Assembly: GCA_964418715.1 (NCBI GenBank)
Contig: CAYQMW010000003.1
Coordinates: forward strand, 1-32,954
DNA from: an uncultured Methanobrevibacter sp.
GTDB taxonomy: Archaea > Methanobacteriota > Methanobacteria > Methanobacteriales > Methanobacteriaceae
Direction of reading: 5' to 3'
Length of the DNA: 32,954 nucleotides
Positions 115-27,225 of the stretch are shown piece by piece. The translations under genes and the position numbers were made by a program. The number at the start of each line of letters is the position of its first letter. Position 1 is the first letter of the stretch. The notes beneath the pieces are model-generated. The model ran no database searches, was not told the origin of the DNA, and saw nothing but the letters and a program-made list of their open reading frames with translations.

Positions 115-241
115 TATTCTCAGGGCGGAGTGAAATTCTCCACTGGTGGTAAATTAAATATATTAATGAGTCCACGAGCACGAAAGTGTTGATTTGGTGA
201 AAATCCAAAACCAACGGTGATAGTCCGGATGAAAGAGAATA
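115..241 (+). ncRNA. FMN riboswitch (RFN element) aptamer upstream of ribB
   Basis: P1 is TATTCTC (115-121) paired with GAGAATA (235-241). Conserved RFN segments occur in order: TCAGGGCGGAGTGAAATTCTCCACTGGTGGT, AGTCCACGAG, P4 GCAC-GAAA-GTGT, GATTTGGTGAAAATCCAAAACCAACGGT, ATAGTCCGGATGAAAGAGAA. It is a GC-richer patch in AT-rich DNA directly 5' of a riboflavin-synthesis gene. Confidence 0.95.
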
Positions 242-306
242 TATGCTTTAATAAATTATAAACTAAATTGGTTTTTATATAATTTACTAATTTATATCTT
301 TTTTTA

Positions 307-356
307 GCCCTGATTCTAGTAGTAAAATCTAGAACCTTATATAAAAACTCAGGAGT
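307..356 (+). promoter_or_regulatory. Riboswitch expression platform (alternative pairing with aptamer or SD) and Shine-Dalgarno of ribB
   Basis: GCCCTGA (307-313) is the exact reverse complement of aptamer TCAGGGC (120-126). CCTGA (309-313) can alternatively pair with TCAGG (349-353), which overlaps the SD AGGAG (351-355), enclosing the hairpin TTCTAG/CTAGAA (314-334). ATG is at 364. Confidence 0.75.
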
Positions 357-363
357 ACATACT

Positions 364-8340: not shown

Positions 8341-9495
8341 CTATAAGGAATTTAATGTTTTTTCTACTAATTTTTCATCACATTGAAGCTTAATAATATT
8401 GGTTCTACCTTTACCTCTTCCACGGGAAACAGTATTAGTAGAGATAATACCAAGCATTTCAAGTTCGTTAATAAAATCAAAAATTCTTCTATAAGTAACT
8501 GAATCTCCTTTAGAAACATCTTTATAGGTTTCATATAATTTACCAGAACTGATTTCCTCATTGTTTTGAGTAAGAATAAGTACTGCTTCAAGTACTCTTT
8601 GTTGTTGAGTAGGTAATGTATTAATAATATCAGTTACCTTATTATGTTCAATTCTATTTTTAGCAGCAATAACATAATCACCTAGAATTTCAGAAGAATC
8701 ATTTTCATCTGCAATATCTCCAGCAGTTGAAAGTAAATCAAGAGCATACCTTGCATCTCCTTCTTCTTTAGCAGCCATTGCAGAACATAAAGGAATTACA
8801 TCTTCTTTTAGAACATTTTCTTTAAAGGACATTTCAGATCTTTCATTTAAAATATCTGCTAATTGATCTGCACGATAAGGTGGAAATACAATTTCTTTAT
8901 CCCTGAGACTACTCATTACTCTAGGTTTAATGAACTTTTTAAAGTCAAGATAATTACTAATTGATAATACAGATACGTTTTCAGTACGAGTTAAGGTGTA
9001 TAATAATCCATCACCATCTTTTTCAAGTAAAATATCAACTTCATCTAAAATAATTATTAAAATAAGTTTTTTACCATGCATCTGTTGATTGAGAACATCT
9101 CTAAAAGTATTAATAATTTCTCCTTTGGTCCATCCCCTGTATGGAACATCACGTCCTAATCTTTGACAAAGTTGTGCTAATACCTGATATTCAGTAGTAT
9201 AATCAGTACATCTAATATATTCAACATCAATATATACATTGCTATCTTGTGCAGCTTCTAATAATTGTTTTTGTGCAAATTTAGCTGCAGCAGTTTTACC
9301 TGTTCCAGTTTTACCATAGATTGTAACATCAGATGGAGTTACATTATCTAATGCATCGACCCAATATTTTGCAATCTTAGTTATCTGATCATTACGATGT
9401 GGTAATTGTTCAGGTAAAAATTTATGACTTAAAGGACTCTTGTCTTTAAAGACAGTCTTTCCTCTGTCCATATTCGTAAAAATATTATCTTTCAT
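8341..9495 (-). CDS. cdc6: Orc1/Cdc6 replication initiator
   Basis: LPHR, Walker A GKTGTGKT, Walker [22 protein letters not shown] and a winged-helix C-terminus (ELEMLGII...SRGRGKGRT). Confidence 0.97.
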
Positions 9496-9666
9496 ATTGC
9501 CACCTACACATATATTTAAAGCAAAATCTTACTTTAAAAATTATGCAATCAAATTAAGTTTAAAAATTAAAATTATAGTAGTGATTTTAAAATTAATTAA
9601 AATTACTATAAAATATCAAAATTATTAAGTAAATAAGTAAATTTCAAAACATCTATTTAAAGATGT

Positions 9667-10086
9667 ATTTCAAGTGTAAAAAAGTTGTAATTTTTTAAAA
9701 AAAATAAAGTACAACTGCAAGTGTAATATTGATATTTATCTTTTATAAATATTTCTATATTTTGAATTTTTCACTGACAGTGTGTGAGATATATTTCAAG
9801 TGTATGCAACATTTGTAAAAAATGAAAATCATAAGGTGCATTTCAAGTGTAAAATTTTTTAAATATTTTCATATGAACATGTGATAGATTTTTGAAAATT
9901 TTTAGTGAGAGATAAAAATTATGATTTTTACAGTGGAAATATACCCCTTAAGTCATAGTATATCCTCGAATATGTTTCACTGGAAATACCTCTCTCACAC
10001 TGGAAGATTAAAAAATCATATTAAAAAAATAAAATTATAATCTTTAAAATTTCATAAAAAATTATTAAGTACAATTTCAAGTATAA
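9667..10086. other. Probable chromosomal replication origin (oriC) with mini-ORB repeats
   Basis: 13-bp elements related to TTACACTTGAAAT. One orientation: 9667-9679 ATTTCAAGTGTAA, 9714-9726 ACTGCAAGTGTAA, 9773-9785 (degenerate), 9793-9805 ATTTCAAGTGTAT, 9840-9852 ATTTCAAGTGTAA, 10074-10086 ATTTCAAGTATAA. Opposite orientation: 9928-9940 TTACAGTGGAAAT, 9975-9987 TTTCACTGGAAAT, 9995-10007 TCACACTGGAAGA. All lie in a ~890-bp intergenic region directly upstream of cdc6. Confidence 0.9.
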
Positions 10087-10384
10087 AAGAGAAATTTTTA
10101 CAACATTTTTTTAATAAATATATTAAAATTTTAGTCAAATAGAAAAATAAAATATAAAATGTTATCATATCAGATTATCTATTATATTTCAAATTTTATA
10201 CATAATATAATAACATAATAAATAAATAAAAATAATAAATAAAAATAGTAATAAAATTAAAAAATAGAATAATAATAAAAATAAACATATATTATTAATT
10301 ATATTAACAATTAATAAATTATTATTATTTAATATAATAAAATATTAATTATTAATTATTTATATTAAAAATAAGATTAAAATA

Positions 10385-10858
10385 TTATAATTCATCAATA
10401 TTTATGTTTTTTTGAGAGAATGTTCTCTCGATAAGCCATAGACATTGAAGTTTTGCTTTGTAGATTCTTTTTATTGTATGAATTAAATTGTCTTTTGTAA
10501 GGCCGTCTTCAAATATTTCATCTGTTATAAGAAAACGTGTAAGTTCATTATCAGGATGGTTTAATTCAAAATCAACTAAAAACTGATTTAAACCAAATCG
10601 CATTGACCATATGAAATTTTCTTTCATTTGATCAGTTGCATTGTTAATCATTTCTTTTTGTTCAGCCGCTATTTCAGTTGCACAACCAACAAGAATCATA
10701 TCCTCTTTTCCAACAGGTTGAATTAAATCCATCATATGATCTGGAGGATAATTTATAATATAGTGAAAATTAGCCTTTGCATCTTCAATTTGATTGTTTA
10801 ATAAACCTTCATCATTTAACCATTTAAGCAGTAAGTTTTGATCTATCATTTTATTCAC
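10385..10858 (-). CDS. Conserved archaeal hypothetical protein (DUF2299-like)
   Basis: Clean 157-aa ORF. WL.DEG, ANFHYIINYP and IFEDGLTKD resemble the conserved archaeal protein recalled beside Methanobacteriales cdc6/oriC. The family call is from memory. Confidence 0.65.
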   Translation of the reverse strand: MNKMIDQNLLLKWLNDEGLLNNQIEDAKANFHYIINYPPDHMMDLIQPVGKEDMILVGCATEIAAEQKEMINNATDQMKENFIWSMRFGLNQFLVDFELNHPDNELTRFLITDEIFEDGLTKDNLIHTIKRIYKAKLQCLWLIERTFSQKNINIDEL

Positions 10859-13680: not shown

Positions 13681-14886
13681 CTATTTTCTTATAAGGTCAA
13701 TTACTTTTCTTGATGCTTGACCATCATCAAATTCATTGAACTTTTCATTGAATTTAATATATTTATCTCCATAGACTTCTTCATAGGTTTCTAAACGGTT
13801 TTGAATAAATTCAACAAGATCTTTTGTAGTCATACATATTGGACCTGGAACCTCTTCTACCATATCAAAGTAAAAGTCTCTTAGATTATTTTTATAATTA
13901 TCTAAATCATAGGTATAGAAAAGCATAGGTCTTTTTAACAGTGCATAATCAAACATTACAGATGAATAATCAGTAATCATAATGTCAGACACAAGATATA
14001 GTTCCTGTATATCCCAGTCAGCATCACATTCAATTACAAAATCGCCATATTTACTCCAGTCAATATTGTCTTTAACAAGATAATGGAATTTGACAATTAG
14101 ATAATATTCATCTTTAAGATCTTCATAAAGCATGTCAAAGTCCATTTCAGTTGCAAATTTATATTCTCCTTTTTGATAAAATTCATTATCTCTCCAGGTT
14201 GGAGCATAAAGGATGATTTTTTTATCTTTTGGAATGTTTAATTTTGATTTAATATTATCAATGTCTTTTGGATTGTTTTTATTAATTAATATATCATTTC
14301 TTGGATAACCTATCTCAAGCATTTCACCTTTAAAGTCAAATGCACGTCTGAAAATCTCTGATGAGTAGGTATTTTGTGATATAAGATATTGCCACACATG
14401 TGAATTTTTTCTAAAATCATCATGATATTGGGTTATGTCCTGATTTCCGCTCATATCAATATAATCCATATCAAGAGCTAATTTTTTAAGTGGTGTTCCA
14501 TGCCAGGTTTGTACATATTTAGTGTTTTTATTTTTTTTAAGATAATACAAGTGTCTTGAATCAAATATCCATGTTCCACTTCTAAGTGTATAATATAAAA
14601 ATCTAAAAAAAGGCTTTTTGACCTTTACCGGATTACCAGGAATTTGTACTTTTGTATTTGTAAGTACCCAAACAGATTTAAACTCCTTATCAAGGCCCTG
14701 GTTTAGGATTTCTTCATAAACAGATTTTGGATTACCAGTATAATTACGGCCATTACTTGATTCAAAAAGGATAATATTTTCATTTGGAGGTATAATATAT
14801 GAAGCTATATAATATAAAGCCCTTGCAGAATATTTAGCACAATTATAAATTATATCCTTTATTTGTTTTTTAAATGTTTTAGCCAT
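13681..14886 (-). CDS. CDP-glycerol glycerophosphotransferase (TagF/TagB family)
   Basis: ILFESSNGRNY.GNP, QTWHGTPLKK, GYPRND, ILYAPTWRD, VKFH and ITDYSSVMFDY. Both catalytic His motifs are present. Confidence 0.93.
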   Translation of the reverse strand: MAKTFKKQIKDIIYNCAKYSARALYYIASYIIPPNENIILFESSNGRNYTGNPKSVYEEILNQGLDKEFKSVWVLTNTKVQIPGNPVKVKKPFFRFLYYTLRSGTWIFDSRHLYYLKKNKNTKYVQTWHGTPLKKLALDMDYIDMSGNQDITQYHDDFRKNSHVWQYLISQNTYSSEIFRRAFDFKGEMLEIGYPRNDILINKNNPKDIDNIKSKLNIPKDKKIILYAPTWRDNEFYQKGEYKFATEMDFDMLYEDLKDEYYLIVKFHYLVKDNIDWSKYGDFVIECDADWDIQELYLVSDIMITDYSSVMFDYALLKRPMLFYTYDLDNYKNNLRDFYFDMVEEVPGPICMTTKDLVEFIQNRLETYEEVYGDKYIKFNEKFNEFDDGQASRKVIDLIRK

Positions 14887-15010
14887 ATTATCCCTTTTTT
14901 GATTTAGTTAAATATTTTTTTTTAGTTTATTAAATTATAATTATATTTTGTTTATTTTAATTAAATTCCAATACTTATTTATTTTATTTTAGTTAAATTA
15001 CAAATTAAAC

Positions 15011-15778
15011 TTAACTTTCAAGTTCATCTACTAGTTTTTGAGCATATTCCCAATCATTATGATCATCAATTTCGCTCCATTTTAATCCATTTGTTAGGAC
15101 AAAGTCAATAGGTTTAATTTCACTTAAATCTTTAAATGAAAAATCATAATAGTTTTGAGGATCTTCATTTATTGACTCATTTAAAAATCTATTAAAGTCA
15201 TTAATATCAGATTTAATTACTTTTGATACTCCAATAAATTCACCAGTAGAACTAGGAATATCCAATCCTTTACCGATGGAGTTTATTACCCCATCTGCAA
15301 TGGATTTATCAGAGTTAAAACTTTCATTATCAATAATTAACTTAAAAGATTCTTCATTTAAGTCTTTAAAGTTGTCAATAATCATAGCAGTATTATCTGT
15401 TTTTGCAAGTCTTTTTATAATTAATGGATCTACCACATTATCTCCATTTACTAGGATAAAGTCATCTGGGCTCTCTTTTTCTATATATGTACTTGCAAGA
15501 TAAGTTGAAACAGATGTATTAGTTACATCATATTTTTCATTAGTAATGGTTTTAATTTCAATATTGTATTTATTTTCAAGTTCTTTAGATAAATCTTCTA
15601 CCTTCTTCCCATTATATCCAACTACAACAATGAATTTGTTAATATCTGCATCAATACAGTTTTTTATCATTCTCTCAAGTAAACTTATATTATTTATTTT
15701 AAGAAGTGCCTTTGGAATATCTTTTGTAAGAGGCATTAATCTTGTACCCATACCTGCTGCTAAAATTACACCTATCAT
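15011..15778 (-). CDS. LicC/IPCT-like nucleotidyltransferase (putative polyol-phosphate cytidylyltransferase)
   Basis: ILAAGMGTRL.PLT...PKALL, VVGY, N.KYDVTN, LVNGD, GEFIG and WSEIDDHND. Start moved from 15826 (overlaps gpsA) to ATG 15778, which follows a GTGA SD. Confidence 0.85.
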   Translation of the reverse strand: MIGVILAAGMGTRLMPLTKDIPKALLKINNISLLERMIKNCIDADINKFIVVVGYNGKKVEDLSKELENKYNIEIKTITNEKYDVTNTSVSTYLASTYIEKESPDDFILVNGDNVVDPLIIKRLAKTDNTAMIIDNFKDLNEESFKLIIDNESFNSDKSIADGVINSIGKGLDIPSSTGEFIGVSKVIKSDINDFNRFLNESINEDPQNYYDFSFKDLSEIKPIDFVLTNGLKWSEIDDHNDWEYAQKLVDELES

Positions 15779-15807
15779 ATTATCACAATAAAACTTTATT
15801 AATTTAT

Positions 15808-16773
15808 TTATTCTATATTGCTCCATAATGTTTTAAAAGCTATTTTTGGAGGAATCTGTTTAACAATCACATCATATACAAAATCTACAATTACACTTTT
15901 AGTACCAGTATTTGTACAAATGTCTTTAATAGCCATTATTGAATTTTTACCTTCAAAAACAATACCACTAGCTTTCTCATCAACAATGATTCTCTGACCA
16001 TATAACATACCAAGTGTATGGTTTCTACTTTCTGATGAGGTTGAAGTTAAAACCAAATCACCAAAACCACAATATTCACTTGCTGTTGATGTATTTCCGC
16101 CAAAGGCTTTTATTATATCTTTTGTTTCTCTAAATCCTTTTGTAAGTACTGAATATCTTGCATTTTCATTAATATTCATACCTTCACATATTCCATTAGC
16201 TATTGCATTAATGTTTTTAATTACACCTGATAATTCAAGACCAAGTACATCATCAATAATTTTTACTTTAAAATCATCTGTTTCAAGTGTCTGTTTAACT
16301 ATTTTAGCATTTTTCATATTATATGATGCAATATTTGTAATGGTTGGAAGGTTTAATACAATTTCAGATGCAAAGTTTGGCCCTGAAAGGGCAACATAAT
16401 TATTATCATAATATTCTTCAATGATTTTACCCATTGTTTTAAGTGAAGGATATTCAATACCCTTTGCAGTTGTAACAAGAATTGTATCCTCACTAATTAC
16501 TTCTTTTAAATCTATAAGCATTTCTCTAAAGCCAGATGAAGGTATTGATAAAAAGATAATTTCACATAGTTTTAAGTCGTTTATATCAGTTGTTGCAGTA
16601 ATATTATCTTTTAGCATTGTATTTGGATAATATTCACTATTGTAATGGTTTTCATTTATACTTCTTTTTAGTTCTTCTTTTCTTAAGTAAAGGATTACTT
16701 CATCAACATTTAATGCTACTGTTTGAGCAATTGCTGTTCCTAAACTTCCAGCACCAATAATACCTACCTTCAT
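15808..16773 (-). CDS. gpsA: NAD(P)H-dependent sn-glycerol-3-phosphate dehydrogenase (bacterial GpsA family)
   Basis: GAGSLGTAIA Rossmann motif, AKGIE, LSGPNFASEI, catalytic KN in GVIKNINAIANG, and GFGDLVLT...SRN. Confidence 0.92.
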   Translation of the reverse strand: MKVGIIGAGSLGTAIAQTVALNVDEVILYLRKEELKRSINENHYNSEYYPNTMLKDNITATTDINDLKLCEIIFLSIPSSGFREMLIDLKEVISEDTILVTTAKGIEYPSLKTMGKIIEEYYDNNYVALSGPNFASEIVLNLPTITNIASYNMKNAKIVKQTLETDDFKVKIIDDVLGLELSGVIKNINAIANGICEGMNINENARYSVLTKGFRETKDIIKAFGGNTSTASEYCGFGDLVLTSTSSESRNHTLGMLYGQRIIVDEKASGIVFEGKNSIMAIKDICTNTGTKSVIVDFVYDVIVKQIPPKIAFKTLWSNIE

Positions 16774-16856
16774 TTAATCACCATTAACTTTAATTTTTAG
16801 CTATTTTAGATTTAATCTTAATTTATTAGTATTTTAGATTTGATTAGAGTAATATT

Positions 16857-17987
16857 TTAATCTTTACCTATTTTAGATTTAAAACGACTAGTTAAATTGT
16901 CTTTCTTATAATCAATCCATCCTTTAGTTGATTTAACAGTTTTAATTTCACTTGTTAATCGTTCATTTTGTTTAGAATAATAGTTATAATTTCTCTCTTT
17001 CTCACGTATATAGATTAATTCATCTATTTTTCCTTCAATTAAAAAATCATATTTAATCTTATTAATCATTGTAAGATTTTCAAACAGTTCTTTTGGAAAA
17101 TCTTCAATAATCGGTTTAATATCATTAATTATAAATTCTCTATACTCCACATCACCAATATCGATTTGGTCTATAAATAATCTGTAATCAATTTCAAGTA
17201 ATTTAAAGTGATATGCATCTAGAAGACTCTTATATTTTTCGTCTGATTTAAATAAATCTTCTATTTTGTTTATTATAAAAATACGATCTTCAATATTCTT
17301 TTTATTTGTCCTATCTTGTGTAGTTGATTTATTAGATTTATCTCTTCGACGTCTCCAGTAATATTTTACCTCTGGTAAAACACCAACAGAATCAGTTGAT
17401 GAGAACAGTTCCATTGAAAAGAGTAAGTCTTCATATAATCTGTCAATAAATTCTATATTGTTGTCAACTAAGAGGCTTGTTTTAATTAATTTATTACAAG
17501 GTGAAGTGTCATAGACAAATTCAGGATGTTCTAATATACTGCTTTTAGTTACTTTTTCTTGAATAGATCTCTCATGAAGTTCACTTCCACCTATTATACC
17601 TTTATGGTCAAATCTTACAACATTAAACAGTACCATATCAAGATCATTTTCAAGTGAAAAATTTAGAACCTTTTCATATCCATCCAAATCAATTTTATCA
17701 TCACTGTCCATAAAGGCAATATATTCACCTTTAACATATTTAAGTGCAATATTTCTAGCTATTGCCTGACCTGTATTTTCTTTATTGTATAATACTTTTA
17801 CTCTTTCATCAGATGCAGCATATTTTTCTAATATTTTAGGTGAATCATCACTAGACTTATCATCAATACATATTATTTCAATATCTTTAATGCTTTGATT
17901 TATAAGACTATCTAAACATTCTTCTAGATAAGTAGAGGTATTATATACAGGTACTATAATACTTATTTTTGGATTATCTAAAGACAT
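16857..17987 (-). CDS. Glycosyltransferase family 2
   Basis: ISIIVPVYN, EIICIDDKSSD, ARNIAL, GEYIAFMDSDD, CNKL and YEDLLF. Confidence 0.92.
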   Translation of the reverse strand: MSLDNPKISIIVPVYNTSTYLEECLDSLINQSIKDIEIICIDDKSSDDSPKILEKYAASDERVKVLYNKENTGQAIARNIALKYVKGEYIAFMDSDDKIDLDGYEKVLNFSLENDLDMVLFNVVRFDHKGIIGGSELHERSIQEKVTKSSILEHPEFVYDTSPCNKLIKTSLLVDNNIEFIDRLYEDLLFSMELFSSTDSVGVLPEVKYYWRRRRDKSNKSTTQDRTNKKNIEDRIFIINKIEDLFKSDEKYKSLLDAYHFKLLEIDYRLFIDQIDIGDVEYREFIINDIKPIIEDFPKELFENLTMINKIKYDFLIEGKIDELIYIREKERNYNYYSKQNERLTSEIKTVKSTKGWIDYKKDNLTSRFKSKIGKD

Positions 17988-18109
17988 CTTATCACCTATT
18001 AGTTTAAATCATTATTTATTTTCTTTAAAAGTAATTTCTTTAAATTTTATAATTTAAAAACGATTTATTAATCTTAAAGTTTTTATTATTAGTTTTAATT
18101 TGATATAAT

Positions 18110-19303
18110 TCATTTAATTTTATCTTTAATATCTCTAATTGGTTTAGTCATTTTCCAGCTTGTTGAGTTTAATATTTCATTTTGTGTTTTTTTAAGTTTA
18201 TTATTTTCTTTGGTTAATTTTCTATTATTTGACCTTAATTTTTTATATTCAGCTTTTAACCTTTTATATTCTTTTATATTCTCATGATACCTTTTTTCTC
18301 TAATTGTTGCACGTTTTATCATTCTTAAGAAATAATTATTTTTAAAATCACCATATTCTATATTATTGAAAAACACATTAAATGGGTAATTATCATTAAA
18401 GAAATTAGAGTTTCTAAAGTTTTTATAAACATCACTGTTTAATAATTCATCTACAACTTCTCTTTTTAGGGTATTATCTTCAAGTTTATCCCTTATTCTA
18501 TTAACATAAGAATAGAGATTATTAGTTATTAATGCTGTAGTCATATATTCATTAATTTCATATTTTTCACATATATCTAACAGGTTTGTATATGCTATTA
18601 AGCTATTTTTAAGCTGTTTTAGATTAATGTTATTTGATACAGACTTATCTTCACCATCTCTAATATTATAGTTATAAACTGAATAATTGTTAATTAATAC
18701 AATCTTTTTTGCTTTAAAATAAGCTTCATTTACAAACAATAGGTCTTGAGCAGAAATATCTTCTCTAAATTTAAGATCATTGTTTAGTATAAAATCTTTT
18801 CTAAAGAGTTTTGAAGCTATTGCAGGAGCAAGATCCATTAATTTTAATTCATTTTGAGAATCAGATACAATTGTAGTCTCACTATCTCCATTTATACTTT
18901 TATCTTTTATAGTATTATCTGAATTTAGACGGGTATATCCTCCAATTGCAATATCAGTATCTCCATCTTGTGAGATTACATTATATAACCTTTCAAGGCC
19001 ATCAGTGTTTAGATAATCATCACCATCTAAAAATAAAACATATTTGGAGCTGGCATTTTTAAGACCAATATTACGTGGTCTTCCTCCATATCCACTGTTT
19101 GTATCTAGATGAATAACTTTAACATTACTAAACTCATCTGCCCACCTGTCAATAAACTCAACACTCTTATCACTTGAAAAATCATCAACAAATATTACTT
19201 CAATATTTGAAAATCCAATACTTTGATTTTTTATACTTTCAAAGTTTTTTTCAATATATTTTTCAAGATTAAAAACAGGTACAATTACTGAAATTTTATA
19301 CAT
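18110..19303 (-). CDS. Glycosyltransferase family 2 with C-terminal coiled coil
   Basis: ISVIVPVFN, VDDFSSD, PRNIGL, FLDGDD and QDLLF, then a K/E/N-rich heptad tail ending ILNSTSWKMTKPIR. Start taken at ATG 19303. Confidence 0.92.
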   Translation of the reverse strand: MYKISVIVPVFNLEKYIEKNFESIKNQSIGFSNIEVIFVDDFSSDKSVEFIDRWADEFSNVKVIHLDTNSGYGGRPRNIGLKNASSKYVLFLDGDDYLNTDGLERLYNVISQDGDTDIAIGGYTRLNSDNTIKDKSINGDSETTIVSDSQNELKLMDLAPAIASKLFRKDFILNNDLKFREDISAQDLLFVNEAYFKAKKIVLINNYSVYNYNIRDGEDKSVSNNINLKQLKNSLIAYTNLLDICEKYEINEYMTTALITNNLYSYVNRIRDKLEDNTLKREVVDELLNSDVYKNFRNSNFFNDNYPFNVFFNNIEYGDFKNNYFLRMIKRATIREKRYHENIKEYKRLKAEYKKLRSNNRKLTKENNKLKKTQNEILNSTSWKMTKPIRDIKDKIK

Positions 19304-19525
19304 CAAATCACACAAGAAATATATTATTAGTAATTTATTTAATTTAATCCTTATAATAATTTTGAATATTCTTAGTTTTTTTAAGTTTAGATTTATGTTT
19401 TTTTAAAATCAGTATTGATAAAATATTTTTTATTTAATTAATTCAATTCATAAATTATAAATTATTTTTTAAAATTAGTCAGATTAAAAAATTGTTAATA
19501 ATTTTATTTTAAAAAAAGAAGGGGT

Positions 19526-19550
19526 AAAAAGAGTTATTTAAACTCTTTTT
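19526..19550 (-). terminator. Stem-loop terminator downstream of the adhesin gene
   Basis: AAAAAGAGTT (19526-19535) and AACTCTTTTT (19541-19550) form a 10-bp inverted repeat about 20 nt past the stop, followed by T tracts on the minus strand. Confidence 0.65.
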
Positions 19551-19568
19551 TAATAAATTTTTAGTTTT

Positions 19569-21569
19569 TTATTTTTTTACAGTTATTTTTACTTTTTTAA
19601 TTGCTTTGTTGTAGTAGTTGTTTGCTGGTGAGCTTATTGTTGCTGTGTATTTTTTAGCTGTTTTTAAGTTGGTTATTTTAAAGGTTGCTTTTCCTTTTGC
19701 ATTGGTTTTTGTAGTAAATGTTTTTCCATTGACTTTTAAGGTTACTTTTGCTGATTTTATTACTTGGTTTTTGTTGTTTTTTAGTGTTATTGTGTATTGT
19801 TTGGTTTTAATGTTTAGTTTGTAAGTTTTTGCACTTGCGATTATTTTTTGTGCAGCTTTTTTAACTGTTACTTTTACAGATGCAGTTGATCCTTTGTAGT
19901 TTGTATCTCCTGTGTATGTGATTTTTGCTGTATAGGTTTTTGGTATGAGTGTTGCAGCATTGATTTTTACCTGTCCGTTTTTATCGGTTGTGTATTTTTT
20001 AGAGCCTCCAAGGTTTACGGTTATTGCTGCTTTTGGTATTACTTTTCCATTTGCATCTTTTAATCTAATTGTTAAATATTTATTTACATTATAAGTGGTG
20101 GTTACAGCACTTGCATAGATTTTACTTGCTATTTGGTTTACTGTTATTGTTGCGTTAGCTGATTTTTCCTCAGGGTATGATGTGAGAGTTAAAACAGCAG
20201 TATATATACCAGGGTTTAAATCAACAATCCAACCTTCACCTGTTAAACCGTAAGCAGTTTCAATTAATTGGTTACCATCATATATTTTTATTGTGGCATT
20301 AATGCCGTTGTAGAGTGTATTGTTTATTGTTAGGTTGAATTGTAGTTTTTCACCTGATTTGTAGCTTGAACTGTAATTGGAGACTATTATTTCTGCAGGA
20401 ATGATTGTTGTGCCTTCGATAGTATTTCCGTTGAATGTACATAAAACTGCATAACCTCCATACATTGCTTTGCCATGTTCTGCGTTGTTGTCTGTAAATG
20501 TACAATTGTATGCATTTACATCCCATAATGCTCCACCCCGTTCGCTTGCGTTGTTTTGTGTGAAAGTTGAGTTGTATGCATTTCCATGTGCTATTGCTCC
20601 ACCAATAAGTCCACCATTATTTTGTGTGAATGTACAGTTGGTTGCATTTCCATAGCATATTCCTCCACCAATAAATGATGCGTTATTTTCTGTAAATGTA
20701 GAGTCATATGCATTACCCATCCATACTGCTCCACCCATTTTTCCACTGTTATTTGTAAATGTACAGTTATATGCATTTGCTAGGAATATTGCTCCACCAT
20801 TTTCATTTGCAGTGTTGTTTGTAAATGTACAGTTATATGCATTAGCTCTCCATACTGCTCCACCATCTTCTGCTGTGTTTCCTGTGAAAGTTGAGTTGTA
20901 TGCATTACCTTTACAAATAGCACCACCATTTACTGCTGTGTTTTGTGTGAATGTACAGTTTATTGCATTACCGGAGTCCATAGCACCACCGTCAAATGCA
21001 GTATTGTTTGTAAAGTTACAATTTATTGCAGTAACTTCACCAACGATAGCACCACCATTATAATATATATCTGAACTTGCATTACCGTTTATAAAATTAA
21101 TATCATGGAATATTACATTTTCTACGGTTACATTGAATATTCTTGCCATGTGGTTTCCATCTAGTGTAACATCATTTCCATAAATAGTTAAAGCACGGTT
21201 AATTATAATTCCATTTTGAAAATTAGAGTCAGATCCATTATTGTAGGTATAATTATTGGATAAATATATTGTAGTATTATCATTACCGTTAATGGTTTCG
21301 TTTAGTTGTGTGAATGTTAATGGTGTGTCGGTTAGTGTAGGTGTCTCTTCACTTTCTGAAACTTCATTATTATTGTTTTCTTCTAAAATTAGTTCATCAT
21401 TTTCATTATTACATGAAACATCATTTTCTTGGATGTTTTCTTCTAAAACAAGTTGTTGATTTTCATTAGTACTAGTCACATCACTTACAGCATCCTCAGC
21501 AGCACTAATGGCCGAGATACTTAAAAAACAAATAAGGCATACTAGTACTAAAAGTGTTTTGATTTTCAT
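19569..21569 (-). CDS. Adhesin-like surface protein (signal peptide, PMP-like beta-helix repeats, Ig-like basic C-terminal domains)
   Basis: N-terminus MKIKTLLVLVCLICFLSISAISAAED, about 10 GGA...FTxN repeats, and C-terminal TTDKNG / KTNAKGKATFKI Ig-like repeats. ATG 21569 follows SD GAGGA; the track start at 21581 is an alternative. Confidence 0.9.
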   Translation of the reverse strand: MKIKTLLVLVCLICFLSISAISAAEDAVSDVTSTNENQQLVLEENIQENDVSCNNENDELILEENNNNEVSESEETPTLTDTPLTFTQLNETINGNDNTTIYLSNNYTYNNGSDSNFQNGIIINRALTIYGNDVTLDGNHMARIFNVTVENVIFHDINFINGNASSDIYYNGGAIVGEVTAINCNFTNNTAFDGGAMDSGNAINCTFTQNTAVNGGAICKGNAYNSTFTGNTAEDGGAVWRANAYNCTFTNNTANENGGAIFLANAYNCTFTNNSGKMGGAVWMGNAYDSTFTENNASFIGGGICYGNATNCTFTQNNGGLIGGAIAHGNAYNSTFTQNNASERGGALWDVNAYNCTFTDNNAEHGKAMYGGYAVLCTFNGNTIEGTTIIPAEIIVSNYSSSYKSGEKLQFNLTINNTLYNGINATIKIYDGNQLIETAYGLTGEGWIVDLNPGIYTAVLTLTSYPEEKSANATITVNQIASKIYASAVTTTYNVNKYLTIRLKDANGKVIPKAAITVNLGGSKKYTTDKNGQVKINAATLIPKTYTAKITYTGDTNYKGSTASVKVTVKKAAQKIIASAKTYKLNIKTKQYTITLKNNKNQVIKSAKVTLKVNGKTFTTKTNAKGKATFKITNLKTAKKYTATISSPANNYYNKAIKKVKITVKK
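20428..21058 (-). repeat. Intragenic tandem repeats, about 10 x 63-66 bp (21-22 aa, GGA(I/V)xxxNAYN(C/S)TFTxN)
   Basis: Recurrent TGTAAATGTACAGTTATATGCATT-like units on the + strand. The translated repeats were counted by eye; boundaries are approximate. Confidence 0.85.
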
Positions 21570-21617
21570 CCTTTTCCTCATTTTTCTTTATCAATTTAAT
21601 AAATATTAATAAAATCT

Positions 21618-21640
21618 TTTGAATAATAAGCTTATTCAAA
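21618..21640. promoter_or_regulatory. Palindromic operator candidate upstream of the adhesin
   Basis: TTTGAATAA-N5-TTATTCAAA is a perfect 9-bp inverted repeat next to TTATATATAA (21641-21650), about 50-70 nt upstream of the start codon. Confidence 0.4.
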
Positions 21641-22069
21641 TTATATATAAGGTTATTATATTTATTATATAAAAAATTTATCTATAGGCCTTAAATGCAC
21701 TATTATTTTTTAAAATCCATATTAAAGATTTTAAATTAAAAATATTAAAAAAACAAATTAAATTTTAAATAATAAAACAATTTTTTACACATTACTATGA
21801 ATTAGTATAAAGATAGCTATAAAATTTATTTTTACACTACTATCATTGTTAGTATGAAATATATTTATTAAAAAATTTTTAAAATGTCTAAAACTTAAAG
21901 AATATTAGAAATAAACTTTAATAATGTCTTTTTACCTAATTTAATTTAATTAATTATTCAAATGTTTTTAAATAAAAATCTATAAATAAAATTTTAAATA
22001 GATAATAATTAAAAAAATCAAGTTTTTAAAATTCTTTTTTAAAAAATTATTATATCATAGTGTGTTAAT

Positions 22070-24397
22070 ATGGCTAAATCTGGATTTTCAATAATCATAT
22101 CTGAAGGAGTATTAAATAAATATTTTAAAGATTTTTTTAAATCTTTTACATCAGATATGGATATATGTTTAGTTTTAAGTGATAAATCTGATGATTTAGT
22201 TTCAGATGATAATTTAGATTATGATATTATTTCAGATACTAATACAGATTATAGAGTAGTTTCAGACAGATTATATTATAATGATTATCCAGATATTAGA
22301 TTATTCGCTGATTTTAATTCAATATTAGAAGAAGATTTTAGTCCTGATACTATCTATTTTATAAGTGAAAATGATTTTGATTTAGTTAAAAATACAAGTA
22401 TTGAAAATAATAATCTAATAGTTATTCCGGGAAATCTTGAAAATAAAGAGTTTATAAATTGGAAAATCTCTCATATGAGGGAATTGATAGGTATTTTTAA
22501 AAATAATTCTTATTTTATTGAAAATTTATTAGTCTATAATATTTATGAGATTATAGAACTTGATTATAGTATATTTGAAAAGTCCAGGTATTTGGAGATT
22601 ATAAGTTCAATAATAAATATTCTAAAATCTGTTTCAAAAGATACAATATTAAATTCAAACTTTTTAAATAATGATATGAAATCATTTTTAATTTTTATTA
22701 AAAACAATCAGGAATATACACTGGATATTAGGGATAAAACAGTTTTATTATATACAGGCGACTATTTAATTGATGATTTGGCATTTAATAATATAAAAAT
22801 AGATATTATTGATTTAAAAGATGGCTTTTTAAGTATTGATGCATATATTAAAAGTAATTTTTACTTGGAAAGTATTAGATTTGAAGCTATTTTAGATAGT
22901 GGAAATTCAAAAGAAAAATTTAACTCTAATCTATTAGAATATCCCTCTACTGACCGTAGAACCTTTAAGTATTTAGGTATAAGTTGGGTATTTTATTATA
23001 ACTTTAATATTCAAATACCAATTGATTATAATAAAACTTATAGAATTGATTTAAAAACCATATTTACCGAATCAGATAATCAGATAACAGTAAATAATAG
23101 TATATCATTTAGAAAACATGGAAATATATCCCATTATACTAATTATACTTACCTAGACTCTAAGATTATAGAGTTTAAAAATAATTCATTTTATTTGTAT
23201 GATTATTCCACATCAAAAGTCTTGTCTTTAGAGTTTAAATCATTACTACGTATTTTAAAATCATCTAAACCATTCTGGTATAAGGCTATTTTCTATAGAA
23301 TACTATATCTTATTTTAAAACCCTTTTATAAAAATAAAAAAATATTCTTATTTGAAGATCGGTCCCATCAGGCTGATGATAACGGTGAAATATTATTTAA
23401 ATATGCAGTTACCCAGGATGATAATATAGATAAATATTTTATTATTGATAAGAATACCTCTGATTATAAGAGATTATCAAAGGATTATAAAAATATAATT
23501 CCATTTAAGTCATTTAAGCATAAAATATTATATCTTTTTGCAGATAAACATTTCTCCAGTCATGTTGATAGGGTATATTTAGATCCATTTGATAGTGAGT
23601 CTCCTGAATTATATAATAGTTTAGCCACATTTAGAAGATATTTCCTCCAGCATGGTGTAATCCAGTCAGACTTATCCCACTGGATTAGAAAATATTATCA
23701 TAATCTTGATTTATTTTTAACCTCATCTAAATATGAAAGAGACTCTATTGTTAATGGCTATTATAATTATGATAGTAATATTGTCCAGTTACTTGGACTT
23801 CCGAGATATGATTATCTTGAAAATAAAGAAGGCCGTAAGGAAATTTTATTTATGCCTACATGGAGAAAGTATCTTAAAACAAAAGAAGATTTCCTCCAAT
23901 CAGATTACTATAAAAGACTTAATAGGTTTTTTAATAATAGTAAACTAAAAGAGGAGCTATTAGAGTATGGCTATAAAATAGTCTTTAAACCTCACTTTAA
24001 TATATTAGAGTATTTGGACTTTTTGGATATTGATGAGGACTATGTTAGACTTGCAGTAGATGAATCATATAGAGATCTTTTCAACAATTCAAACTTACTT
24101 ATTACAGATTATTCATCTGTATTTTTTGATTTTGCATATTTAAAAAAACCAATTATATATTATCAAGAAGCAGATGAGTATCATTTTAATAAAGGTTATT
24201 TTGACTATGAAACTATGGGTTTTGGAGACATCATCAAAGACGAAGATGAATTAGTTGATTTAATCATTTCTTATATGGAAAATGATTGTAAAATGAGTGA
24301 TAAGTATATTATGAGAGTGGAAGACTTTTTCAAATACACAGATAAAAACAATTCTAAAAGAGTTTACAATTGGAGTTTAAATGAAGATAAGCATTAG
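22070..24397 (+). CDS. TagF-family glycerophosphotransferase with an eroded N-terminal region
   Basis: C-terminal half has ADDNGEILF, FLQHGV, GLPRYD, ILFMPTWR, FKPH and LITDYSSVFFDFAYLKKP. It is a paralog of the next gene. Confidence 0.88.
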   Translation: MAKSGFSIIISEGVLNKYFKDFFKSFTSDMDICLVLSDKSDDLVSDDNLDYDIISDTNTDYRVVSDRLYYNDYPDIRLFADFNSILEEDFSPDTIYFISENDFDLVKNTSIENNNLIVIPGNLENKEFINWKISHMRELIGIFKNNSYFIENLLVYNIYEIIELDYSIFEKSRYLEIISSIINILKSVSKDTILNSNFLNNDMKSFLIFIKNNQEYTLDIRDKTVLLYTGDYLIDDLAFNNIKIDIIDLKDGFLSIDAYIKSNFYLESIRFEAILDSGNSKEKFNSNLLEYPSTDRRTFKYLGISWVFYYNFNIQIPIDYNKTYRIDLKTIFTESDNQITVNNSISFRKHGNISHYTNYTYLDSKIIEFKNNSFYLYDYSTSKVLSLEFKSLLRILKSSKPFWYKAIFYRILYLILKPFYKNKKIFLFEDRSHQADDNGEILFKYAVTQDDNIDKYFIIDKNTSDYKRLSKDYKNIIPFKSFKHKILYLFADKHFSSHVDRVYLDPFDSESPELYNSLATFRRYFLQHGVIQSDLSHWIRKYYHNLDLFLTSSKYERDSIVNGYYNYDSNIVQLLGLPRYDYLENKEGRKEILFMPTWRKYLKTKEDFLQSDYYKRLNRFFNNSKLKEELLEYGYKIVFKPHFNILEYLDFLDIDEDYVRLAVDESYRDLFNNSNLLITDYSSVFFDFAYLKKPIIYYQEADEYHFNKGYFDYETMGFGDIIKDEDELVDLIISYMENDCKMSDKYIMRVEDFFKYTDKNNSKRVYNWSLNEDKH

Positions 24398-24573
24398 TTC
24401 TAATCTGTATATTTTAGCTTTTATTGAAATTTGATAATTTTAAGTCTTTATAATTTGACTTTAAAACGAAGGTTTATAAAAACTCTAAAAATTTAAATAA
24501 TACAAAATTATAATAATCTTATAAGAATTAAAATAATCTATTAGATTTTTACTATTTTATCATTGGTGAATTT

Positions 24574-27225
24574 ATGAGTAAAAAATTCAAATTTTCTATT
24601 ATCATTTCTCTTTTTGAGTCTCAATCTTATATTAATGAGTCATTGGACTCTATTATTAATCAGTCATTAAATTTTAAGGATAATGTTCAAATTATTATAG
24701 TAGATAATGGTAGTATTGATAATAGTAGAGAAATTGTTGCTGAATACAAATCTAAATATCCTGATAATATTCTGCTTCTTGATAAAGAGAATGAAGGCTT
24801 TACATCAAGCTGTAATTATGCATTAAAATATGTAGAAGGAGAATATATTAATTTTTTACTTGCTAATGATAAACTTACAAAAAATACATTAAAAGAAGTA
24901 TATACCTTTTTTAACAATCATTATGATGAGATTGATATTGTAAATCTTCCTGTTATAATCTTTTCAAAACAAATGAGTAAGAATTTATTAGAATATTTAG
25001 ATTTAGATAAGCAACTTTTAGTTAATCTTGATGATGAACCTGTCAAATCTATTTTACCATATTACAGTAATTTTATTAAATCAGATTTAATTAAGGATAT
25101 TGAGTTTGATACTGATTTGGTTAGTGGAGCTATTGATCTTGTAATTGCTGAAATTTTACTTAAAAAAAGAGTTTACGGTGCTGTAAATACATCAAGATAT
25201 CTATTTAGAAAAAGAAATACTGATGACAGGTTTGTTGAAGATTCTCTTTCAAAGAGAAATTTTACAGAGAAAATTAAATTGTTTTACCTTAAACTAATAG
25301 AGATTTCCAAAGATAGTAAAGGTAATGTTCCTTATTTTATACAACATATAATTGTTAAACAACTGACAGAAATTGTTTTAGTAGAAGATTTATGGGACTA
25401 TTTAGATACTCAAGAAGAAATTGACGAGTTTTGGCAGTACTTTAATCAGATTTTACCAATATTTGATGAAAAATTTATTTTCTCAGATAAAAAGGTTAGA
25501 GACAGTGTAAAATCATTTTTAATTTATTTGAAAAACAAAGAATTCCATATAGAAACATATCCTGAAAAACATGAGGTTTACCTTAAATCTAATGATTATA
25601 TAATTACTCAACTTCACAGACATGTTATCCGTTTTGATATTGTAAATTTACATAATGGAGTTTTAAACTTTTCAGGAAGTGTCCTCTGCCGTTGTGATAA
25701 TCAGGCATTTCATATTGAAGCTGTTAAAACAGATGAAAACGGAAATGAATCTGTTTATAAAGGTAAATTCTTTGAATATGTAACTACTGGCCGTAAATCC
25801 AGGAAGTTTTTAGGTATTTGGTGGAATTATTATCATCATTTTGATGTAAGTATTCCAGTAGAATCTGATAATAAATGTCAAGTTAATTTCAGATTAGTTT
25901 ATACTGAAAATGGTGAAAATATTGTAATGGACAATAGAATCGGTTTTAGACAATTTCCGGGAATGTCAAACTTTAATAATTACTTTGTAAAAGAGTCCAA
26001 AATCCTTTACTTTAAACTTAAAACATTCTACTTAGAACCATTTTCATACAGAAGAATGCTTCCATTAGAGGCATTTTCACTAGCAAAAATTACTCTTAAA
26101 AAGGAAAAGGATTTAAAATTAGGATTATTTTATAAGTTATCAAGATTAGCATTATTCCCATTTATGAATAATAAAAATATTTGGCTATTTATTGATAGAG
26201 CAGAATTTGCAGATGATAATGCAGAGATATTATTTAAATATGCATATGAAAAGGATGATAATATTAGTAAATATTTCCTTATCAATGAAGATAGTCCAGA
26301 TTATGAAAGATTAAAAGCCGATTATGGTAGTAGTATTGTTCCGTTTGGATCTTTTAAACATAAAATTCTTTATTTCTTTGCAGATAAAATCATGTCTTCA
26401 CAGATTACAAGAAGTCTTATAAATCCATTTGCATATAAAAATACATATATTTTTGAAGGACTCTCATCACATGAGTATTGTTTTATACAACATGGAGTAA
26501 TTTTACATGACTTGTCAAGTTGGATTAGAAAATATAACAGACAAATGCTTCTATTTGTTACAACTGCACCACTTGAACGTGATTCTATTGTAAATGGATA
26601 CTATAATTATGGTGAAGATGTTGTTCAAGCTTTAGGTCTTGCTAGATATGACAATTTAGTAGATGATGCAAAAAATGAAATACTCTTTATGCCAACCTGG
26701 AGAAGAAAACTGGATACAGAAGATCAATTTATTAATTCAGATTACTTTAAATACTTGAAAAGTTTCTTAAATAATGATAAATTAATTGATTATCTTGATG
26801 AGAAAGGTTATACCTTAGTATTCAGGCCACATCCTAATTTGTGGAAGTTTATAGATCTATTTGATTTAAACGATAAAATTAAAATTTCAGATGTGCCATA
26901 CAGGGACATGTTTAGAGATGCATCACTTATGGTAACTGATTACTCTTCAGTATTCTTTGATTTTGCTTACCTTAAAAAACCTGTTTTATATTATCAAAGT
27001 GAATCATTTGATGATTTCCATTATGGTAAAGGTTATTTTGACTATGAAACAATGGCCTTTGGAGAAATTGTTCACAATGAAGATGAACTTGTTGAAATGA
27101 TTATGGAATATGTGGAAAATGATTGTAAAATGAAAGATGAATATAAAGATAAGGTAGATAAATTCTTTAAATTCAATGATAGAAATAATAGAAAAAGATT
27201 ATATGATTGGATTATAAGTCATTAG
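24574..27225 (+). CDS. GT2-like / TagF-family glycerophosphotransferase fusion
   Basis: N-terminal GT2-like fold (FSIIIS, SLDSIINQS, IIVDNGSIDNS, GEYINFL). C-terminal FIQHGV, GLARYD, FMPTWR, FRPH and VTDYSSVFFDFAYLKKP. Confidence 0.9.
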   Translation: MSKKFKFSIIISLFESQSYINESLDSIINQSLNFKDNVQIIIVDNGSIDNSREIVAEYKSKYPDNILLLDKENEGFTSSCNYALKYVEGEYINFLLANDKLTKNTLKEVYTFFNNHYDEIDIVNLPVIIFSKQMSKNLLEYLDLDKQLLVNLDDEPVKSILPYYSNFIKSDLIKDIEFDTDLVSGAIDLVIAEILLKKRVYGAVNTSRYLFRKRNTDDRFVEDSLSKRNFTEKIKLFYLKLIEISKDSKGNVPYFIQHIIVKQLTEIVLVEDLWDYLDTQEEIDEFWQYFNQILPIFDEKFIFSDKKVRDSVKSFLIYLKNKEFHIETYPEKHEVYLKSNDYIITQLHRHVIRFDIVNLHNGVLNFSGSVLCRCDNQAFHIEAVKTDENGNESVYKGKFFEYVTTGRKSRKFLGIWWNYYHHFDVSIPVESDNKCQVNFRLVYTENGENIVMDNRIGFRQFPGMSNFNNYFVKESKILYFKLKTFYLEPFSYRRMLPLEAFSLAKITLKKEKDLKLGLFYKLSRLALFPFMNNKNIWLFIDRAEFADDNAEILFKYAYEKDDNISKYFLINEDSPDYERLKADYGSSIVPFGSFKHKILYFFADKIMSSQITRSLINPFAYKNTYIFEGLSSHEYCFIQHGVILHDLSSWIRKYNRQMLLFVTTAPLERDSIVNGYYNYGEDVVQALGLARYDNLVDDAKNEILFMPTWRRKLDTEDQFINSDYFKYLKSFLNNDKLIDYLDEKGYTLVFRPHPNLWKFIDLFDLNDKIKISDVPYRDMFRDASLMVTDYSSVFFDFAYLKKPVLYYQSESFDDFHYGKGYFDYETMAFGEIVHNEDELVEMIMEYVENDCKMKDEYKDKVDKFFKFNDRNNRKRLYDWIISH

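Follow-up and report, generated by a model that had tools for sequence, protein, structure and literature searches.

An FMN aptamer ahead of ribB

The window analysed here, a stretch of 32,954 nucleotides from an uncultured Methanobrevibacter sp., carries near its beginning an FMN aptamer (RF00050, 112-244; P1 formed by 115-121 with 235-241) and behind it ribB (364-996), which encodes a bacterial-type 3,4-dihydroxy-2-butanone-4-phosphate synthase of 210 aa (TIGR00506). These and all further features of the leader lie on the + strand. Cmscan of the whole window matched RF00050 over model positions 1-138 with 113.7 bits (E 5e-26). This exceeds the gathering cut-off of 66.2 bits over the full model, and the Rfam check proposed in the initial annotation thus came out in favour of the element. 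FMN was the sole Rfam family found across the window, and the genome holds a single copy of RF00050. In 59/59 archaeal loci, the gene behind the aptamer is ribB.

The RibB of the window scores 254 bits against TIGR00506 (cut-off 177) and 77 bits against the archaeal PRK05773. It is identical to E. coli RibB at 138/206 positions (67%) and to an archaeal-type RibB at 76/201, and its nearest relatives are found in Methanobrevibacter records (92-93%). With one tblastn match, it is the genome's only ribB. The host markers in the window are archaeal: TfrA and the PolD small subunit score above their NCBIfam cut-offs, and orc1/cdc6 is present. The window begins at a contig end of an assembly of 207 contigs, with the aptamer 111 nt from that end, and the assembly lacks ribK, located upstream of ribB in relatives. 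Judging by the gene order of loci L012 and L014, ribK may lie in an unassembled gap immediately before the window; in the same assembly (G000), a CobQ-like gene is cut off at the start of contig C64, the start of C3 being the other end noted.

Further features were observed along the window. At the ribB stop, a small hairpin AGAGT-AAAAA-ACTCT followed by a T-rich stretch (995-1020) may end the ribB transcript before tfrA. The orc1/cdc6 gene (8341-9495) and the very AT-rich sequence at about 9500-10400 (GC 12% at 10001-10500) form a candidate replication origin region. A cluster of glycosyltransferase-like and glycerophosphate-transferase-like genes spans 13681-27225 and includes an adhesin-like repeat protein at 19569-21581, all of them named by eye.

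Covariation in the aptamer was counted in 53 of the 59 archaeal copies, excluding six near-duplicates of genus g14. In this set, 96.6% of the cells are paired, and double changes occur in 9 pairs. The 60 double-change cells stand against 14 in shuffles (0/500 shuffles as high), a count that is inflated by kinship among the genomes, which are not independent. The six-stem junction of RF00050 is supported by this covariation, and the pattern of exchanges indicates that the FMN aptamer is under selection in archaea.

The FMN-contact bases G123, G124, G145, A177, G191, A214 and A229 are present in the window and correspond, in that order, to G10, G11, G32, A48, G62, A85 and A99 in the F. nucleatum numbering; this is our own mapping, made by structural position. 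A further contact base, G84, which pairs with C31 in the consensus, is replaced by A213 paired to U144 (144-213, same mapping). The claim that every RFN stem and conserved loop is present thus goes slightly too far, on account of this pair. The list of contact bases follows PMC6298564. The U-A replacement occurs in 8/8 copies of the window's genus and in 0/51 other archaeal copies. It is also seen in bacterial leaders (L092 and 5 Pasteurellaceae loci), where it apparently arose independently. For three natural G84A aptamers, FMN affinities of 37-106 nM are reported, while G84A without compensation lowers the affinity about tenfold (PMC12219259); as the natural G84A aptamers still bind FMN, U144-A213 is probably tolerated.

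Variant FMN riboswitches with altered ligand (subtypes 1/2) were considered and rejected. They are defined by several contact G's exchanged for A and by linkage to transporter genes, never synthesis genes, and the window has one contact change only and is linked to ribB.

Promoter, transcript and predicted switching

A candidate archaeal promoter lies at 56-74, where a purine-rich BRE-like stretch is followed by the TATA-like TTTATATT at 67-74; the predicted start is at about 95-100. In 34/59 loci, a BRE-like element plus TATA motif begins 30-42 nt upstream of the aptamer, compared with 4.5 in shuffles (maximum 11). The candidate in the window is located further out than in the relatives, at about -53. 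Bacterial-type terminators and sigma-70 promoters were not found on the + strand upstream of ribB, where their counts match shuffles.

In a relative of genus g5 (locus L026), RNA-library contigs join aptamer and ribB in 5/7 RNA runs from 3 studies; these contigs stem from the relative, not from the window's organism, and do not prove a single transcript. Their upstream ends lie at 1629, 1620, 1615, 1614 and 1555, the aptamer 5' end being at about 1630; run X14 continues, and one low-depth X2 contig covers 1601-1762. The ends near the aptamer 5' end are a weak hint and do not define a transcription start; missing coverage further upstream carries no weight.

The motifs read off in the initial annotation, GCCCTGA at 307-313, TCAGGGC at 120-126, TCAGG at 349-353 and the Shine-Dalgarno-like (SD) AGGAG at 351-355, were all located at these positions. 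The ON pairing it proposed, 120-126 with 307-313, is reproduced in the free leader with pair probabilities of 0.75-1.0. GCCCUGA (307-313) is thus predicted to serve as anti-P1 strand: it is complementary to the 5' strand of the aptamer, a feature of the E. coli ribB-type platform, and shares its last three bases with the OFF helix. GCC(C/T)TG is found in 59/59 archaeal leaders, with spacers of 16-164 nt. The ON helix itself cannot covary, because its aptamer side is invariant.

Two more elements are predicted for the ON state. The pyrimidine/U7 tract at 292-305 (U7 = 299-305) forms a computed duplex of -6.7 kcal/mol with 229-246, and would pair with the P1 3' strand; it is also a possible archaeal termination signal. 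A small hairpin at 314-334 (314-319 with 329-334; predicted probability about 0.7 in the free leader) would tie up the remaining sequestering strand. Sequence similar to this hairpin is present in genera g1 and g14, and its in-silico knockout has little effect.

The OFF state was modelled by taking the aptamer out of the fold. Under this condition, 311-321 pairs with 360-371 at probabilities of 0.8-0.97. The 3' strand of this stem contains the AUG (364-366) and codons 2-3, and the hairpin extends weakly over the SD, which is partly paired with 328-330 (probability about 0.55-0.63). Since the stem overlaps the anti-P1 strand at 311-313, the two pairings are mutually exclusive, again as in the E. 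coli ribB-type platform. Over 51 aligned leaders (44 archaeal and 7 bacterial), 90% of the cells of the AUG stem are paired, a somewhat flattering figure, because the 15 archaeal leaders omitted are mostly near-duplicates and also include L035 and L047, which have long spacers and lost the predicted stem. The alignment holds 25 double-change cells (0/500 shuffles), and slid registers pair at 22-48%. In archaea alone, 18 double-change cells are observed vs 3.2 in shuffles (0/1000). Covariation and predicted folding identify 311-321 with 360-371, which would bury the ribB start codon, as the conserved OFF helix.

Support from other computations is uneven. In single folds, the AUG stem exceeds a probability of 0.5 in only 34/53 leaders, and on its own the OFF hairpin shows no stability beyond that of shuffles (z -1.15). 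RNAalifold found no consensus pairs on the platform alignment, a result that gaps and bulges of shifting position probably explain; the case for the stem is thus carried by the count made on the named structure. For the window, opening the initiation region is computed to cost 8.2 kcal/mol (OFF) vs 3.4 kcal/mol (ON). OFF exceeds ON by >1 kcal/mol in 47/59 archaeal leaders, and the order is reversed by >0.5 kcal/mol in 7/59, mostly of genus g14. In-silico knockout of 314-319 or 307-310 removes the difference, whereas knockout of 349-351 leaves it. In four g5 loci with RibBs starting MSK, the SD is predicted to be paired instead of the AUG; together with L012 (see below), they suggest that, in some lineages, the target of the OFF helix has shifted between AUG and SD. 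L035 and L047, both of genus g3, lack a U-run, and their start-codon stem is predicted weakly or not at all; they are possibly decaying or rewired switches.

From these pairings the following mode of action can be proposed. The archaeal BRE/TATA promoter would start the mRNA just 5' of the aptamer. Without FMN, GCCCUGA (307-313) would pair with 120-126 and the U-tract (292-305) would take the P1 3' strand; these ON pairings would shorten the sequestering stem and leave SD and AUG open to the ribosome. FMN would lock P1 and J1/2 and so release 311-321, which would then form the stem with 360-371 that covers the AUG. With the AUG buried, RibB would not be made, and riboflavin synthesis would be under feedback.

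The locus comprises an E. coli-ribB-type FMN leader before a bacterial-type ribB in a methanogen, and we consider it likely that this leader acts as a translational OFF switch burying the start codon. The FMN element is genuine and conserved, and most probably a functional translational riboswitch of bacterial origin. The earlier view of a selected and probably working translational FMN switch is thus retained in its main part, in good agreement with the covariation, the occurrence in 10 genera, the promoter position and the RNA contigs of the relative; the OFF helix had been misassigned.

Distribution and origin in the Methanobacteriaceae

The FMN aptamer is present in 56/151 Methanobacteriaceae genomes and in 10/27 genera. 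It occurs in all 8/8 genomes of the window's genus (7/7 others) and, for two genera, in 13/13 genomes each. When genomes were drawn from across the phylum, all 62 matches (of 151) fell into the Methanobacteriaceae, with 0/15 in three other families. The survey covered this phylum and one Woesearchaeota genome, which gave no RF00050 match.

Four states are found in the family: native ribB without the switch, both genes, the bacterial gene only, and the switch before an archaeal-type gene. Both ribB types are present in, e.g., G010, G017, G029, G064, G071, G084, G114, G135 and G142; two riboflavin-kinase matches each were observed in G071, G084, G135 and G142. The bacterial ribB alone is found in the window genome and in genera g1, g6 and g14. 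In genera g5 and g19, the switch heads an archaeal-type ribB in 17/17 loci (L017, L020, L021, L024-L026, L031, L033, L034, L038, L041, L043-L045, L057-L059), and the leader sits between ribK and ribB, the ancestral locus. Thirteen of these 17 RibBs start MN(Q/H)E, i.e., with stem-forming codons, and four, all of g5, start MSK, while the archaeal RibBs examined that have no switch begin with MI or ML in 26/26 cases. The simplest inference from these sequences is that leader and first codons were grafted onto the native ribB and kept because they worked. With these four states, the family clearly exemplifies the passage of a regulatory RNA from one domain to another.

A RibB tree places the bacterial-type RibBs of archaea among bacterial sequences, in two groups. 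The first comprises g1, g3, g6 and g14 (100/97), the second the Methanobacterium-type g9, g11, g17 and g18 together with a Desulfobacteraceae protein (98/91). A single origin of the archaeal bacterial-type RibB is not rejected (AU p 0.147), and no bacterial sister was resolved in this tree for the Methanobrevibacter/Methanosphaera clade. As the RibB is of bacterial type and close to that of E. coli, leader and gene were likely imported together, presumably from an anaerobic or gut bacterium, and would have displaced the native archaeal ribB here.

Alternative readings and related systems

A first alternative adds a second layer of control: FMN might also free the U7 tract (299-305) for recognition by aCPSF1/FttA or for use as an intrinsic terminator, and this termination would stand in for the Rho-dependent step in E. 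coli. We regard this dual control as possible but rather doubtful. A U-run of at least 5 just before the anti-P1 strand occurs in 55/59 archaeal leaders, compared with 8/62 bacterial leaders and 4% of other 12-nt spacer windows; at similar spacer T content, it occurs in 8/8 Methanobacterium-type vs 8/25 Pasteurellaceae leaders. The tract is predicted to be less paired in OFF than in ON in 47/59 archaeal leaders, and a termination layer is conceivable because aCPSF1 binds terminator U-tracts, which serve as its termination signals (PMC8716108). On the other hand, the bacterial pyrimidine tract in the same place also pairs with the P1 3' strand in 51/61 leaders, and the U-run may thus be an AT-biased form of that pairing strand. 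For the window tract, pairing prevails in either computed state (0.26 and 0.16 unpaired), and the RNA data are contigs, which cannot show 3' ends. A wider version of the same idea, equally doubtful in our view, is that the Methanobacteriaceae rewired the imported switch, with an archaeal promoter, the stem kept and a U-run exposed by FMN to aCPSF1/FttA, as a portable unit grafted onto the native ribB of another lineage. If true, this would place transcription termination in archaea under the control of a metabolite-sensing riboswitch.

Unlikely in our view is a non-regulating relic, i.e., a leader that arrived together with ribB and has since been kept solely as promoter/RBS region or to stabilise the mRNA. 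The loss of the predicted sequestering stem in L035 and L047 and the changed FMN-contact pair of the window's genus are what such a relic might display. They are outweighed by the compensatory changes in both the aptamer stems and the sequestering stem, set against spacer lengths of 16-164 nt, by the retention in 13/13 and 8/8 genomes of the genera named above, and by the leader being retained after its move onto a different ribB.

Still less probable is the OFF helix originally assigned, in which CCUGA (309-313) pairs with UCAGG (349-353) over the SD. The two strands are indeed complementary (-5.3 kcal/mol alone, -8.6 kcal/mol extended), yet no pair reaches a probability of 0.3 with the aptamer removed. 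Its computed probability in the window is 0.02, and it was rejected as the main OFF helix. In its alignment, 64% of the cells are paired, with no excess over shuffles, and likewise in archaea only; TCAGG/CCAGG near the SD is found in only 5/53 loci, and in-silico removal of the pairing causes no change. A different picture is given by L012, a locus of the same genus that lost the lower start-codon stem: here CCUGA:UCAGG is predicted at 0.98, and the pairing may be a lineage-specific back-up.

An assembly chimera or bacterial contamination, which the contig end so near to the aptamer in a 207-contig assembly and the missing ribK might suggest, is effectively refuted, because independent genomes have the same gene order, with ribB followed by tfrA in 24/25 switch loci of the three genera g1, g14 and g6 (the junction at which contig integrity had been questioned), because the FMN element is present in several single-contig genomes, and because the bacterial-type archaeal RibBs of g1, g3, g6 and g14 form their own clade (100/97).

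The preferred reading, a translational FMN switch, bears on a specific gap. The initial annotation had contrasted the element with control by RbkR, a comparison inapplicable to this lineage, as Methanobacteria have a kinase-only RibK and RbkR is reported to be absent (PMC5397151). This is in good agreement with the RibK reading frames across the family, mostly about 125-165 aa (126 aa in a same-genus locus) and too short for an extra domain; the fusion of riboflavin kinase to a winged-helix domain that marks an RbkR regulon is thus not seen in the relatives. Without RbkR, riboflavin control in Methanobacteria was left unexplained; the switch would fill this empty regulatory slot and provide a specific answer for about one third of the sampled family genomes. 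Methanobrevibacter-type methanogens are common gut archaea, and the locus would be a natural test case of a bacterial riboswitch on archaeal machinery, allowing a compact test, at base-pair level, of a bacterial translational switch on archaeal RNA polymerase and ribosomes. If functional, it could provide methanogen genetics with an inducible part of native origin, and flavin analogues acting on FMN riboswitches could be tried on rumen methanogens.

The view that FMN riboswitches are bacterial elements, also held in 2017 (restricted to Bacteria, PMC5397151), applies to the origin of the module; as to its occurrence, McCown et al. 2017 (PMC5473149) already described FMN riboswitches as "occasionally present" in Archaea, in one sentence whose available text names no taxon, gene or mechanism. 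Our search found no paper on the mechanism of archaeal FMN aptamers or on a Methanobrevibacter switch; the Gupta and Swati surveys, Nawrocki 2014, the PMC5473149 supplement and PMC7950411 may list matches. The available parts of PMC5780412, PMC12452182, PMC13035836 and PMC3849165 hold nothing on a Methanobacteriaceae FMN element.

Among archaeal systems, RbkR shares the FMN feedback on riboflavin genes and differs in being a DNA-binding protein (PMC5397151). The fluoride riboswitch of Thermococcus kodakarensis is likewise natural, archaeal and presumably translational, and differs in ligand and fold; as of 2021, the fluoride riboswitch was the only experimentally tested natural archaeal riboswitch (PMC8241225).

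The closest counterpart is the E. coli ribB switch, with which the window shares the aptamer class, the anti-P1 GCCCUGA, ribB as regulated gene (67% identical protein) and a stem over the start codon that uses the first codons (Met-Asn-Gln); the GCCCTGATTC...ATGAATCA layout is likewise present in the E. coli leader. Most of the sampled leaders of Desulfobacteria, Desulfovibrionaceae and Pasteurellaceae (53/58 parsed loci) share this layout before an MNQ-starting RibB. The window differs from E. coli in its archaeal host, in a BRE/TATA-like promoter instead of sigma-70 and, to our knowledge, in the absence of Rho from archaea, as well as in the U-run in place of a mixed pyrimidine tract, U-A in place of C31-G84 and an extra ON-state hairpin. 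In E. coli, an anti-P1 stem competes with a stem over SD and AUG (PMC11571811), and Rho termination is used in addition (PMC11571811, PMC5499598). The archaeal U-run can pair with the P1 3' strand, similar to the anti*-P1 stem proposed for E. coli. RNA class and platform are hence known; the archaeal host is what is unusual.
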